Source: a virus (Duplodnaviria; Heunggongvirae; Uroviricota; Caudoviricetes). From it: 26,903 bases of DNA. The position numbers were made by a program, and so were the translations under genes. Positions 3,481 through 6,635 of the stretch are shown here, in pieces (within the stretch, counting starts at the first letter, position 1; each line of letters opens with the position of its first letter). The notes below the pieces were generated by a model. The model was not told where the DNA came from and ran no database searches. It saw only the letters and a list, made by a program, of their open reading frames with translations. The stretch covers positions 1-26,903 of the IMG/VR virus record IMGVR_UViG_2917413769_000006, one strand, 5' to 3'.

Positions 3481-3770
3481 AGAAAATCGATCTCACCAAA
3501 CAGGCGCGCGGTCGCATGTGTACTGTGCGCATTCCAGGTATCTGCAATTTTGATCCAGAAACCAGCGTTCTTGCCCATTATCGCATGAGTGACACCTGCG
3601 GGATGGGAATCAAACCACATGACATGCAAGGCGCAATTGCCTGCAACTGTTGTCATGACGTAATCGATGGCCGTGCAAAAACCGATATTGATCAGGACAC
3701 TCTGAGGCTATATCACGCCGAAGGTGTTTTCCGTACCCAACAAATCTGGAGAGAGGAGGCGTTTATATGA
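3477..3770 (+). CDS. YbcO-like protein (DUF1364), putative Zn-binding nuclease of lambdoid nin regions
   Basis: MKKIDLTKQARGRMCTVRIPGICNFDPETSVLAHYR...ACNCCHDVIDGR: Cys cluster and RIPG.CN..PETSVLAH motif resemble DLP12 YbcO as I recall it; ATGA overlap with the upstream gene. Confidence 0.7.
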   Translation: MKKIDLTKQARGRMCTVRIPGICNFDPETSVLAHYRMSDTCGMGIKPHDMQGAIACNCCHDVIDGRAKTDIDQDTLRLYHAEGVFRTQQIWREEAFI

Positions 3771-4345
3771 TTAACCCATCAACGACAGGAAAGGGTGGTG
3801 AAATGCTGCGATTAAACACCCTCGAGTCAGTCTGGATTCAGGGGAAACTTCGTATGTGGGGCCGATGGTCATATATTGGATCCGGCTCAGGTGGTGACAT
3901 GTTTAATAACCTTCTCGCGTCAAAAAAAGTCAGTAAAACTGCTATTCAGCAGGTGTTGAGGCATCTCAAATCATCGGGTCTGGATCACGGTGAACTGATG
4001 TCATATTTTCTGGACATGCTTTCCGGAAAAGAAAAAAGCAACCTTGCATTCTGTACCGATGAAGAAGGCCTGTTAATGGATGCTGTGATCGGTGAAATAT
4101 TAGTTCGGACTGGTCATCAGCGCCTTTTTAAATTGGTAGTTGATCGGTACAAGGATCGTATGAGTAAGAAGGCTATGGCAAGAGAACTGAATACTCGTCA
4201 CCCGGAATGGTGCCTACGTACCTGCGAAAGTCGAATTGATGTCTGGTTGCAGATGGCAGAAGCCATGCTGTACTTACCAATGTGTGATGTATTCGATAAA
4301 AAAGCTGATCGATTCCGGTTGCAAAGTTGCGCGGGGATTGCTTGA
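3767..4345 (+). CDS. late-gene antiterminator Q-like protein
   Basis: Position immediately upstream of terminator hairpins and the lysis cassette; N-terminal LESVWIQGKLRMWGRW resembles the LERWG.W start of Q-family antiterminators (QuuD-like). Alternative start ATG 3803. Confidence 0.65.
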   Translation: MINPSTTGKGGEMLRLNTLESVWIQGKLRMWGRWSYIGSGSGGDMFNNLLASKKVSKTAIQQVLRHLKSSGLDHGELMSYFLDMLSGKEKSNLAFCTDEEGLLMDAVIGEILVRTGHQRLFKLVVDRYKDRMSKKAMARELNTRHPEWCLRTCESRIDVWLQMAEAMLYLPMCDVFDKKADRFRLQSCAGIA

Positions 4346-4395
4346 ATTCAGCTATGCTCGCGAAGCTACACCCGCAGCGATAGATAAAAATTAAT

Positions 4396-4425
4396 AACCC
4401 GCCATCAAGCGGGTTTTGTCGTTTC
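4396..4425 (+). terminator. rho-independent terminator hairpin
   Basis: 7-bp GC-rich stem aacccgc / gcgggtt with 6-nt loop, followed by ttttgtcgtttc. Confidence 0.6.
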
Positions 4426-4646
4426 TGGAGGATGGAAAAATGAAATAGCTAAACGGAAATACCGTATTGGATACTATATTTTGGCAACGTGACGACAGCG
4501 TTAATCTGGTCGGGCTCTCATGGCGACGTAGTGAGGGAGAGAAAGCGTAAAGCATCACTGAGTTACGGTTGACGCCCGGTTTAACGCGTAAGTAGTCTGA
4601 TAAAGAGATAGTGCGCCGCGACCCTCACAGCGGCAACGATTAACGG

Positions 4647-4676
4647 ACCCCGGCATTTGCCGGGGTTTTCTTATTT
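4647..4676 (+). terminator. rho-independent terminator hairpin
   Basis: Stem ccccggc / gccgggg with loop attt, followed by ttttcttattt. Confidence 0.65.
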
Positions 4677-4711
4677 AAGGCCGCTGACAGGTCCGTTTAG
4701 TGCAACGCCTT

Positions 4712-4748
4712 TCCCCGTTTCCGCTCCTGGATATTCGGGGATTTTTTA
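4712..4748 (+). terminator. possible terminator hairpin (long loop)
   Basis: ccccg ... cgggg stem followed by attttttat; loop is 18 nt so less canonical. Confidence 0.35.
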
Positions 4749-4789
4749 TCACTCATGCCCGCTGAAGTGGGTATTCAAATTAGGGGGCT

Positions 4790-5194
4790 ATGGTGGGTGA
4801 ACCTGTATCTGCCGTCACCGCTACGACGTTAACCCTGACCAGCGTTACTTTTGCGAGCCTTTTCGCTGATACTCCTGCGGGGGTTTATGTCGGGGCGTTT
4901 GCAGGTGCGGTTGTTTATGTTCTGTCATCGCAGGAATTGAGCAGGTTTGCGCAGGTCGGTTATTTCGTAGCGTCGTTTCTTATCGGCATACTTGGTGCCG
5001 ATTTTACGACAGCAATCCTGAATGGAATGCTCGGCAAGCATTTTCCTGATGGAGTAACGATCGGTAACTGGCTTGGCGCTACTGTAGCGGCAGCGGTTGG
5101 TGTCTGCATTCTGATTTCGTTGCGGAAAATCGACCCCAAAACAATCCTGAGCCGTCTGATATCCGGGGGGAGTGGGGATGGTAACGTTAAATGA
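4790..5194 (+). CDS. putative holin / lysis membrane protein
   Basis: 134-aa ORF with RBS AGGGGG; several strongly hydrophobic segments; first gene after Q and terminators, directly upstream of endolysin. Confidence 0.45.
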   Translation: MVGEPVSAVTATTLTLTSVTFASLFADTPAGVYVGAFAGAVVYVLSSQELSRFAQVGYFVASFLIGILGADFTTAILNGMLGKHFPDGVTIGNWLGATVAAAVGVCILISLRKIDPKTILSRLISGGSGDGNVK

Positions 5195-5474
5195 ATTTCT
5201 CCTGATCGTTAATGCTCTCGCTTGCGCAGTCAGCGCAACAACCCTCGGTACATTCCAGCGCAAAGGGGCGAAACACAAACGTATTGGCGCGTTTCTGGCG
5301 TTAGTGCTGATCATCGCCTGTGGCTCAGTAACTATCCAAATTCTTACCGGGGAATATACCGTAGCAAATCCATCGGAAACGGTGATCAACGTAATGCTGA
5401 CCATATTTATCGTTTCTGCAAAAGGGAATGTGATGCGGGTTTTTAACCGGAATGTAGTCAGTTCGGATAAATAG
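5178..5474 (+). CDS. putative holin / antiholin (small membrane protein)
   Basis: About 98 aa from ATG 5178 (GTG 5172 also possible), three hydrophobic segments, overlaps the preceding ORF and precedes the endolysin. Confidence 0.45.
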   Translation: MVTLNEFLLIVNALACAVSATTLGTFQRKGAKHKRIGAFLALVLIIACGSVTIQILTGEYTVANPSETVINVMLTIFIVSAKGNVMRVFNRNVVSSDK

Positions 5475-5487
5475 CTAAGGTAATTCA

Positions 5488-6099
5488 ATGAATAAATCAC
5501 AGTTTCAGAAGGCGGCTAATATCAGCGCCGAGTTAGCTGCGCGTTGGTTTCAGCCAATTGATGCGGCGATGGCTGAATTTGGCATAACTTCTGCCGATGA
5601 TCAGGCGATGTTTATCGCTCAGGTGGGGCATGAATCTGGAGGTTTCACACGAATTGTGGAAAACCTGAATTATTCTGCTGATGGCTTAAAAGCAACTTTC
5701 GGAAAGTATTTCCCCGGCGACACCGCTCAACAATACGGCCGCACTGCTGATCATCCGGCGGATCAAAAATCAATTGCAAATATTGTTTACGCCCACCGGA
5801 TGGGGAATATTGCAGAAAGCGATGGCTGGAATTATCGCGGTCGCGGCCTGATTCAGATTACCGGGCACGACAATTACCGGGATTGCGGCGCTGGCCTGGG
5901 TGCCGATTTGCTACTGGTTCCGCAGTTGCTGGAGCAGGACGAATATGCGGCTCGTTCGGCAGCGTGGTTCTTTGCCTCGAAAGGCTGCCTGAAACGCAGT
6001 GGCGATATTACGGCAGTAACAAAAATCATCAATGGTGGCACCAATGGCCTTGATGATCGTAAAGCTCGCTACGAAAAAGCGAAATCGGTACTGGTATGA
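5488..6099 (+). CDS. endolysin, glycoside hydrolase family 19 (chitinase-like lysozyme)
   Basis: 203 aa; motifs FIAQVGHESGGF, NYRGRGLIQITG, KIINGGTNGLDDR typical of GH19-type phage lysozymes; position in lysis cassette. Confidence 0.85.
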   Translation: MNKSQFQKAANISAELAARWFQPIDAAMAEFGITSADDQAMFIAQVGHESGGFTRIVENLNYSADGLKATFGKYFPGDTAQQYGRTADHPADQKSIANIVYAHRMGNIAESDGWNYRGRGLIQITGHDNYRDCGAGLGADLLLVPQLLEQDEYAARSAAWFFASKGCLKRSGDITAVTKIINGGTNGLDDRKARYEKAKSVLV

Positions 6100-6635
6100 G
6101 TGCACTGCTTGCCATAGCCGAGAAATACTGGAAGCCACTGGTGATCACGTTGCTGGTGGCTTTTTCGTTATGGCGTGTATTCAACGCGGGATATGAATCG
6201 GCTGATTCTGCCTGGAAGCAACAATGGCTACAGCGAGATCTGGCTGACTCAACCGCAACCTTACATAGAGAGGTTGCCGAGCGAACCGAAGAACGGCGGC
6301 GTCAGCAGGCGGCAGACGAGGAACGAAAACGTGCAGATGAGGAACTGGCAAAAGTACAGGCTGATGCTGACGCTGCTCAGCGGGCTGGTGATGGGTTGCA
6401 GCAACAACTCGCCACGCTACGCAGGCAACTCGCAGGAAGTGAAACCGGCCGCATTTCCGCAATTGCAGCAGCAGGCGCGGCAAAAGCCGAGACCACAAGA
6501 GTGCTTGCCGAGCTGCTTGGCGAATCTGACAAAAGAGCGGGCATCTATGCAAAAGAGGCTGATGAACGCTATGCAGCAGGATCAAGCTGCGAACGAACCT
6601 ACGACAAAGTGACAGGAACAAATAATGGAAATTAA
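6096..6635 (+). CDS. i-spanin (Rz-like)
   Basis: ATGA overlap with endolysin; N-terminal transmembrane helix (WKPLVITLLVAFSLW) followed by charged coiled-coil-like region; contains an embedded ORF in another frame. Confidence 0.75.
   Translation: MSALLAIAEKYWKPLVITLLVAFSLWRVFNAGYESADSAWKQQWLQRDLADSTATLHREVAERTEERRRQQAADEERKRADEELAKVQADADAAQRAGDGLQQQLATLRRQLAGSETGRISAIAAAGAAKAETTRVLAELLGESDKRAGIYAKEADERYAAGSSCERTYDKVTGTNNGN
6337..6612 (+). CDS. o-spanin (Rz1-like outer-membrane lipoprotein), embedded in the i-spanin gene
   Basis: Alternate-frame ORF wholly inside the Rz-like gene; MRNWQKYRLMLTLLSGLVMGC has signal peptide plus lipobox Cys; Pro/Gln-rich mature part with a further Cys (QECLPSC). 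Confidence 0.65.
   Translation: MRNWQKYRLMLTLLSGLVMGCSNNSPRYAGNSQEVKPAAFPQLQQQARQKPRPQECLPSCLANLTKERASMQKRLMNAMQQDQAANEPTTK

Follow-up and report, generated by a model that had tools for sequence, protein, structure and literature searches.

The window analysed here, a stretch of 26,903 nucleotides of phage DNA, carries a Q-like antiterminator gene followed by a lysis cassette (Table 1). The 192-aa product of the Q-like gene matches DUF1133 in Pfam (E 1.3e-80) and also Phage_antitermQ PF06530 (34 bits; cut-off 26), so that a Q-family gene stands immediately upstream of the interval under study, as a Q-dependent late leader of the lambda, 21 or 82 type requires. Downstream lie two holin-family genes, a GH19 endolysin gene and the gene for a DUF2514 protein in the Rz position. 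Between these two groups of genes, 4346-4789 is an untranslated stretch: no ORF of at least 60 aa overlaps it on either strand, the longest that do being 4391-4558 (minus strand, 55 aa), 4236-4394 (plus strand, 52 aa) and 4657-4800 (plus strand, 47 aa). The first-pass annotation of this DNA had described an ORF-free interval with three terminator hairpins between Q and the lysis genes; the ORF list, a terminator scan, folding and Pfam agree with that description, and the hairpin coordinates given there were off by no more than 2-3 bases.

A consensus scan of the plus strand found terminator-like stems with T-rich tails at 4396-4415, 4645-4668 and 4725-4740; over the wider region 3700-5300 there are five terminator-like sites, compared with 1.5 +/- 1.2 in shuffled sequence. 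Hairpin 1 begins a block that is conserved in E. coli relatives despite different upstream genes. Other family members (see below) carry a hairpin of different sequence at the hairpin 1 position and terminators of other sequence at the hairpin 2 position.

The Q-antitermination architecture proposed in the first-pass annotation is borne out in its layout: Q gene, terminator hairpins and lysis genes do follow one another, in an order that suits a Q-dependent late leader; a late promoter and a qut site are plausible elements of the window. The search for a late promoter that had been suggested gives a weak candidate whose -10 hexamer contains the stop codon of Q and which is followed by a -10-like TATGCT at 4353-4358, in the position expected for a sigma-dependent pause element. 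Its spacing and motifs recur 3' of another DUF1133 allele (L003; one comparison), but it scores 8/12, under the threshold of the consensus scan, which no plus-strand site passes. A basal transcript would start at this weak promoter across the Q stop and would mostly end at hairpin 1 (about 60-70 nt), while Q-modified polymerase would read past hairpin 1, include the sequence that follows in the late leader and continue through hairpins 2 and 3.

Table 1. Features of the interval between the Q-like gene and the lysis genes, and of its borders (positions in the window)
Feature	Position	Strand	Basis or remarks
Q-like antiterminator gene (DUF1133, Q21-related)	3767-4345	+	ORF and Pfam
Candidate late promoter: -35 TTGCAA 4319-4324, 17-bp spacer, -10 TTGAAT 4342-4347	4319-4358	+	Predicted from motifs
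Mosaic piece (i): Q-linked piece	4346-4395		
Mosaic piece (ii): hairpin 1, Shine-Dalgarno, mini-ORF, small hairpin, ~130-nt pseudoknotted RNA, 3' hairpin	4396-4644		
Hairpin 1, intrinsic-terminator-like; 5' edge of conserved block	4396-4425	+	-11.1 kcal/mol, z -3.1, folded alone
Shine-Dalgarno GGAGG 4427-4431, 8-nt spacer, mini-ORF ATG AAA TAG 4440-4448	4427-4448	+	
Small hairpin H1 (ACGG-AAAUA-CCGU)	4453-4465	+	GCGG-AUAGA-CCGC-type hairpin conserved in relatives
Pseudoknotted RNA core, ~130 nt	4476-4605	+	R1 match, pair counts, compensatory changes
Closing helix	4483-4485/4595-4597		
Core 4-bp hairpin	4493-4496/4509-4512		C-G to A-U exchanges
Long-range helix, loop of the 4-bp hairpin with a 3' strand	4498-4504/4581-4587		GCGUUAA/UUAACGC, 91-94% paired
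Central H-type pseudoknot, stem 1	4515-4519/4535-4539		U-A to C-G in 16 sequences
Central H-type pseudoknot, stem 2	4530-4534/4555-4559		
2-bp mini-hairpin	4545-4546/4552-4553		Larger by insertion in some members
Hairpin with 7-nt loop N-U-[AGC]-G-C-R-N	4566-4568/4576-4578		Many stem exchanges
3' hairpin module (GCCGC 4615-4619/GCGGC 4630-4634)	4606-4644	+	Only in late-leader and phage-plasmid versions
Mosaic piece (iii): two further terminator-like hairpins	4645-4749		
Hairpin 2, strong, intrinsic-terminator-like	4645-4676	+	-19.0 kcal/mol, z -3.8, folded alone
Hairpin 3, terminator-like with T run; 3' edge of block (4749)	4712-4748	+	-14.1 kcal/mol, z -2.6, folded alone
Mosaic piece (iv): ribosome-binding region of holin			
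First holin-family gene (Phage_holin_8), 134 aa, start of lysis cassette	4790-5194	+	ORF and Pfam

The interval is a mosaic of four pieces. When it was compared by blastn with 5,426 complete E. coli genomes, 4396-4749 behaved as one block, with 90-97% identity across 22 E. coli genomes that vary in Q allele and holin: identity is 96-98% in four genomes with the same Q allele and about 90% in 18 further genomes that differ in the Q allele, an intervening ORF6N gene or the holin family. Smaller parts of the block also travel. Hairpin 1 by itself occurs in more than 300 E. coli genomes; 4646-4749, with hairpins 2 and 3 and without the RNA core, lies directly upstream of a lambda-family holin in L007; and a core of about 115 nt (roughly 4487-4605) recurs in three other settings: L004 has it between a Q21-type Q gene and a tRNA-Ile, L005 is a 49-kb plasmid that carries phage genes, and in L006 the core is flanked by a cI-like repressor gene and a RelA/SpoT-domain gene.

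The module at 4396-4644 belongs to a conserved structured-RNA family with more than 100 relatives in prophages of Enterobacterales, one temperate Serratia phage and one virulent Salmonella phage. The family was gathered by exact-match patterns and is thus biased towards close relatives: the exact 17-mer GGCGACGTAGTGAGGGA from the core (4522-4538) matched 64 IMG/VR contigs, a second pattern that avoids this 17-mer gave 47 more viral loci, and a 23-base degenerate pattern matched 16 species representatives, of which 15 are Enterobacterales (Buttiauxella, Pectobacterium, Serratia, Photorhabdus, Erwinia, Enterobacter, Citrobacter, Pantoea, and Symbiopectobacterium) and one is titled Martelella alba. 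A blastn search with the interval of the window found no match among 50,697 phage records; the same records searched with a typical early-leader member gave only Serratia phage OS31 and Salmonella phage 7-11 with a close relative. A covariance model, R1, built from 31 sequences, scores the window copy at 134 bits (E 2.6e-36, 4476-4605) and finds no second copy in the window. OS31 and 7-11 likewise lack a second copy, such as a pair like that of HK022 put would call for, and none lies on the pR side of OS31. The N leaders of Pantoea phage PA-1, Yersinia phage vB_YenM_21.09, HK629, and SE1 were considered as relatives and set aside as a different leader; R1 finds nothing in these four phages or in HK022. 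In spirit, the earlier suggestion that a small non-coding RNA might fit into the interval was right: what fills the stretch from hairpin 1 to hairpin 2 is this conserved structured RNA together with a mini-ORF.

The fold of the core was assessed in a model-based alignment of 100 matches, 87 of them distinct. For a structure of 34 pairs, 92.8% of the alignment cells are paired, compared with 30-47% when the 3' partners are slid by 1-3 columns. Twelve pairs, pseudoknot pairs included, have changed on both sides, a number that none of 500 shuffles reaches (the shuffles ignore phylogeny). Stem 2 of the central pseudoknot is invariant in close members (AGUGA:UCACU) and is rebuilt with other sequence in divergent ones: ACUCG:CGAGU in L091, CCAG:CUGG in L087, L090, L118 and OS31, and GCGC:GCGC in 7-11. 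The loops and joining regions of the core are almost invariant. The family is shallow and much of the core invariant, which leaves many pairs without a covariation signal. The plus strand fits as the RNA strand because G-U pairs are frequent. Two candidate helices were rejected: a 3-bp hairpin, 4520-4522/4527-4529 with the loop GCGA, is not maintained in divergent members, and ACGUG/CGCGU as the closing helix has 80% of cells paired against 91-94% for GCGUUAA/UUAACGC.

Upstream of the core, a second small hairpin, H2 (about 4470-4486), varies in sequence among members and is weakened in the window copy; its 3' strand overlaps the closing helix, a hint of alternative folds. A duplex search found no consistent alternative pairing between the mini-ORF region and the rest of the RNA, and no pairing was seen between the core and the downstream terminator (hairpin 2), so that a classical attenuator switch is not evident. 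Self-targeting antisense of the c4/CI type, in which the RNA would pair with its own Shine-Dalgarno and mini-ORF, was also rejected, the best duplexes being scattered without a conserved site.

The stretch just 5' of the fold fits the definition of a minigene or start-stop site (Shine-Dalgarno at 5-12 nt, AUG, at most two sense codons, and stop). Such an arrangement of Shine-Dalgarno, ATG, 0-2 sense codons and stop occurs in every subgroup of the family. Among 85 distinct upstream sequences, 75 conform to it, and their spacers measure 5-12 nt. These mini-ORFs comprise 18 different sequences and 11 peptides (M, MK, MKQ, MKH, MVH, MHN, and others), which indicates that ribosome loading, and not the peptide, is conserved; by these comparisons, the conserved feature would be initiation and termination by a ribosome immediately before the fold. 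In L118, L089 and OS31, 6 nt separate the stop from the core, and in phage 7-11 a 44-codon ORF ends just 5' of it. In one E. coli subgroup (L002 type) the Shine-Dalgarno is mutated and the first hairpin lost; copies of this type may be decaying. The stops are TAA in 42 cases and TAG in 31, with no TGA. A second small ORF (M-[TK]-SGFTL...), considered in the 3' module of early-leader versions, was rejected, since its conserved bases fall in different frames and the hairpin there covaries.

Family members are found on the coding strand, close to where long phage operons begin. Upstream on the same strand there is a cI-like repressor gene at 59 loci and, as in the window, a DUF1133 Q gene at 27. 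A boxA (GCTCTTTAACA, at most one mismatch) is found within 400 nt upstream in 56 of 107 distinct contexts, accompanied in some by a boxB-like hairpin, and marks the element as an early-operon leader in those 56; no sequence resembling GCTCTTTAACA lies upstream of the window copy on the same strand. Immediately after the element, some loci have a P22 gp24/N homologue and others a small gene that varies; OS31, in which the element stands behind boxA, has no annotated N gene. Judged by this gene order, the module most commonly resides in the early-left leader, where it separates nutL from the first gene. The window copy represents the less common late-leader version, whose 3' part consists of a hairpin and an intrinsic terminator; in early-leader versions the 3' hairpin module is swapped for other 3' modules, which lack a terminator and run into the ribosome-binding site of the next gene. 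Virulent phage 7-11 carries its single copy in the leftward gene block at the right end of the genome, about 1 kb inside that block. Neither the mosaic of modules nor the main home of the RNA module in early-left leaders had been noticed in the first-pass annotation.

Searches for a known RNA at this position were made with general and specific models. Rfam 15, whose families include STnc100, AgvB, AsxR, C4, IsrK, ribozymes and riboswitches, has no match in the window at the gathering threshold, and at E up to 10 it gives only weak, terminator-driven matches, none of which spans most of the core at 4476-4605; nor does Rfam match the element in eight relatives. ARAGORN found no tRNA or tmRNA gene in the window, and a full-text literature search with three conserved motifs returned nothing relevant.

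In its surroundings the window copy resembles lambda-type late leaders (pR', qut, tR', and 6S RNA) and the Q21 antitermination system, with a Q gene, a short untranslated stretch, an intrinsic terminator, and then lysis genes, and with a possible promoter that has a -10-like element in the initially transcribed region; it differs in having three terminators instead of one. We know of no counterpart in lambda, 21 or 82 of the 180-nt module of mini-ORF and pseudoknot that lies here between hairpins 1 and 2. Another cis-acting RNA of phage leaders, put of HK022, is about 70 nt long with two stem-loops and acts independently of other factors, through the zinc-binding domain of the beta' subunit (PMC9378689). 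Like put, the element would be a cis RNA; it is on the coding strand near the start of terminator-bearing phage operons, and its carrier OS31 belongs to the subfamily of HK022 and is without an annotated N gene. Unlike put, it has about 130 nt and two pseudoknot interactions and is present once per genome, behind a mini-ORF predicted to load ribosomes and alongside N and Q genes; nhmmer and covariance-model searches found no similarity to putL or putR.

The bar minigenes of lambda, AUG AUA UAA in the pL operon, share with the mini-ORF the plan of a Shine-Dalgarno, AUG, 0-2 sense codons, and a stop. So do bacterial start-stop sites, which bind ribosomes and slightly modulate the expression of the gene that hosts them (bioRxiv 10.1101/520783). 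The minigene described here differs from both in being conserved across a family with varied codons, never ending in TGA, and always lying just 5' of a structured RNA. The stretch upstream of the holin/lysozyme operon is a known site of sRNAs (bioRxiv 10.64898/2026.05.13.724894; PMC8550237), and the element shares with the prophage sRNAs PasA, PasC, PasD, STnc100, AgvB, and AsxR the same lambdoid slot and an intrinsic terminator before the lysis genes. It does not match the models of STnc100, AgvB or AsxR and, with PasA, PasC and PasD compared by description only, differs from the prophage sRNAs in being larger and pseudoknotted, in carrying a mini-ORF and in occurring mostly in early-left leaders. 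A very short ORF a few nucleotides before a stable structure upstream of regulated genes is also found in leader-peptide attenuators and in cauliflower mosaic virus, where ribosome shunting depends on a short ORF. Ribosome shunting is, to our knowledge, without precedent in bacteria; in contrast to leader-peptide attenuators, the mini-ORF contains no regulatory codons, and no terminator/antiterminator alternative was detected. On the features that can be tested by sequence comparison, the module thus belongs to none of the known families compared. It can be described as a structured phage leader RNA with a short upstream ORF, and there is a real chance that its mechanism is new.

The comparisons show a structured RNA coupled to a predicted ribosome-loading site where operons read by antiterminated polymerase begin. 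There is about an even chance that the module acts in cis, as a leader RNA that engages a ribosome and alters the fate of the operon transcript. A ribosome would load on the mini-ORF and terminate at once, 5-70 nt upstream of the pseudoknot. Held at the start-stop site during synthesis of the next ~150 nt, it would set or protect the fold of the RNA and, seated there, would isolate the folding RNA from upstream sequence. The next step would be binding of the folded RNA to a conserved host machine, be it ribosome, RNA polymerase or RNase; once bound, the RNA would change the stability, termination or downstream translation of the transcript. Some observations sit uneasily with a cis-acting module: phages with N or Q have no obvious need for an extra leader device, H2 is weakened in the window copy, and one E. 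coli subgroup carries mutations in the Shine-Dalgarno and the first hairpin.

Other explanations account for parts of the evidence. If the interval were a plain Q-antitermination leader, with a late promoter, qut and three terminators, the sequence between hairpins 1 and 2 would be passenger DNA. The Q-like gene upstream, the three terminator-like hairpins, the lysis genes downstream, and the candidate promoter with its -10-like element all agree with this, but the core recurs in unrelated contexts, and base-pair covariation, a conserved mini-ORF and near-invariant loops are not what passenger DNA would retain; as a full account it is improbable. A protein-coding origin, as a missed small ORF or as the remnant of a lost moron that the first-pass annotation had allowed for, is very hard to credit. 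ORFs of 27-55 aa do overlap the region, and existing annotations place a minus-strand hypothetical protein over it in one E. coli record and a CDS over the copy in 7-11; however, the loop at 4498-4508 carries indels of 1, 2 and 3 bases between members, which exclude a coding reading, no frame is kept, the conserved 3'-module bases of relatives fall in different frames, and the covariation tracks base pairs, not codons, and so points to RNA. An RNA could also serve as a self-cleaving ribozyme or an RNase site that splits the nut- or Q-loaded 5' part from the message or makes a stable new 5' end. The compact pseudoknotted fold, the nearly invariant joining regions and the phage setting would suit such a role, and the N leader of lambda is processed by RNase III. 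Against it, there is no match to an Rfam ribozyme family and no long duplex for RNase III; this explanation, too, has a low probability, if marginally less low than that of the plain Q leader.

The two remaining explanations each have a somewhat better claim and are still unlikely. A stable trans-acting sRNA or decoy, comparable to the Hfq-bound PasA, PasC, PasD or STnc100 and freed by termination at hairpin 2 or by processing, would explain why terminators bracket the unit in late-leader and plasmid versions; it would also suit the known use of the site upstream of the holin/lysozyme operon by sRNAs (bioRxiv 10.64898/2026.05.13.724894; PMC8550237) and the presence of STnc100 about 275 nt downstream of the element in L014. 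This is the less probable of the two: no promoter is recognisable between hairpin 1 and the Shine-Dalgarno, early-leader versions run without a terminator into the next ribosome-binding site, the conserved parts are structured, with no single strand that varies as a seed would, and the element matches no sRNA family in Rfam. The other is a cis-acting processive antitermination or anti-Rho RNA, like put of HK022 or EAR, that would carry polymerase through hairpins 2 and 3. In its favour, the element lies on the coding strand close to where long operons begin, and the explanation is attractive for carriers without N; the position and protein independence of put have been described (PMC9378689); terminators directly follow the element in late-leader and plasmid versions, the first gene after it is variable in the boxA-bearing early-leader loci and N-like in only some, and OS31, from the HK022 subfamily, has the element behind boxA and no annotated N gene. 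What speaks against this explanation is the lack of sequence similarity to HK022, the 130 nt with pseudoknots in place of about 70 nt with two stem-loops, the single copy per phage with none on the pR side of OS31, the co-occurrence with N and Q genes, and the mini-ORF, which it leaves unexplained.

The cis-acting, ribosome-engaging leader RNA can be put in a more specific form, which is offered tentatively and is well short of an even chance: the module would be a new kind of ribosome-assisted cis-regulatory RNA, in which a ribosome parked on a start-stop minigene is the cofactor of a pseudoknotted leader that reprograms the transcription complex or the transcript where long phage operons begin. 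If so, lambdoid phages without N, such as OS31, could possess an RNA-based antitermination or anti-Rho device distinct from put. Few regulatory regions in biology have been studied as closely as the early and late leaders of lambdoid phages, yet the module is missing from Rfam and left no trace in the literature that could be searched. Its location is that at which the translation of N and the expression of the lysis genes are decided, so it could contribute a further level of control to the choice between lysis and lysogeny or to the timing of lysis. An RNA that binds polymerase, ribosome or RNase would provide a compact handle on that machine, while a module with no measurable effect would be informative on modular hitch-hiking in phage mosaics. 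In either case, the conserved mini-ORF offers a natural setting in which to ask what start-stop minigenes are for, a question that dates back to the bar minigenes of lambda.

The mini-ORF upstream of the pseudoknotted RNA core (ATG AAA TAG in the window) terminates with TAA in 42 and TAG in 31 of the 73 scored copies, which comprise 18 distinct ORF sequences; TGA is never used, and the TAG share is far above that of ordinary genes. The absence of TGA and the frequency of TAG hint at the importance of stops read by RF1, or of tight termination. An E. coli-type subgroup (L002, L003, and eight IMG/VR loci) has GACGG in place of the Shine-Dalgarno sequence GGAGG and has lost the first hairpin, with ATG AAA TAG and the core retained; these copies of the element may be in decay or under different regulation.

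Coordinates of features in the window and comparison loci
Feature	Locus	Position	Remark
Hairpin 1 and tail	window	4396-4430	
5' part altered in E. coli-type subgroup	window	4427-4465	by alignment
Mini-ORF stop codon	window	4446-4448	
7-nt loop	window	4569-4575	closed by hairpin stem 4566-4568/4576-4578
Holin-family genes	window	4790-5194, 5172-5474	23-base overlap
DUF2514 gene	window	6096-6635	Rz position
Embedded ORF	window	6175-6612	other frame, inside DUF2514 gene
RNA core region, Salmonella phage 7-11	L140	1800-1970	record 87947-88117
Hairpin and boxA, Serratia phage OS31	L141	2920-2990	
STnc100	L014	4624-4812	- strand

Within the core, almost all family members share a loop of consensus N-U-[AGC]-G-C-R-N (UUGACGC in the window), whose U at position 2 and purine at position 6 give it the look of an anticodon loop; no partner with which it could pair was found. 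The annotation of Salmonella phage 7-11 has a hypothetical CDS, gp150, that overlaps the core, and a better-supported 44-codon ORF with an AGGAG Shine-Dalgarno sequence stops just 5' of the RNA; gp150 is therefore probably a mis-annotation.

The leaders of Serratia phage OS31, L118, and L089 carry a hairpin, CACCUUCAGAGGGUG, upstream of boxA, and only 3 nt separate boxA from the mini-ORF Shine-Dalgarno sequence. This order of hairpin, then boxA, matches that of rRNA leaders but is unlike that of lambda nut sites; no N gene is annotated in OS31. Three N-leader phages (Pantoea phage PA-1, Yersinia phage vB_YenM_21.09, and HK629; L136-L138) share a different conserved leader, CCAAAG..GUUGGCUUUGGGA..GGAGCUAA..GACUGAGAAG, in the stretch that separates boxB from the start of N, ~130 nt ahead of the gene; it looks like a second, unrelated family of structured N leaders.

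Hairpin 1 with its tail, by itself, has matches in >300 E. coli genomes at ~91% identity over 35 bases; it is a terminator-like module in wide circulation, independent of the RNA element. In L014, the element is followed, ~275 nt farther along the same strand, by a full-length match to the Rfam sRNA STnc100 (82.6 bits), and this late leader holds two RNA modules in series, the element and then STnc100, which is absent from the window.

Among the lysis genes of the window are two overlapping holin-family genes and a DUF2514 gene in which an ORF is embedded; this ORF has a lipoprotein-like signal ending in LVMGC, a feature that an embedded Rz1 o-spanin would be expected to show.
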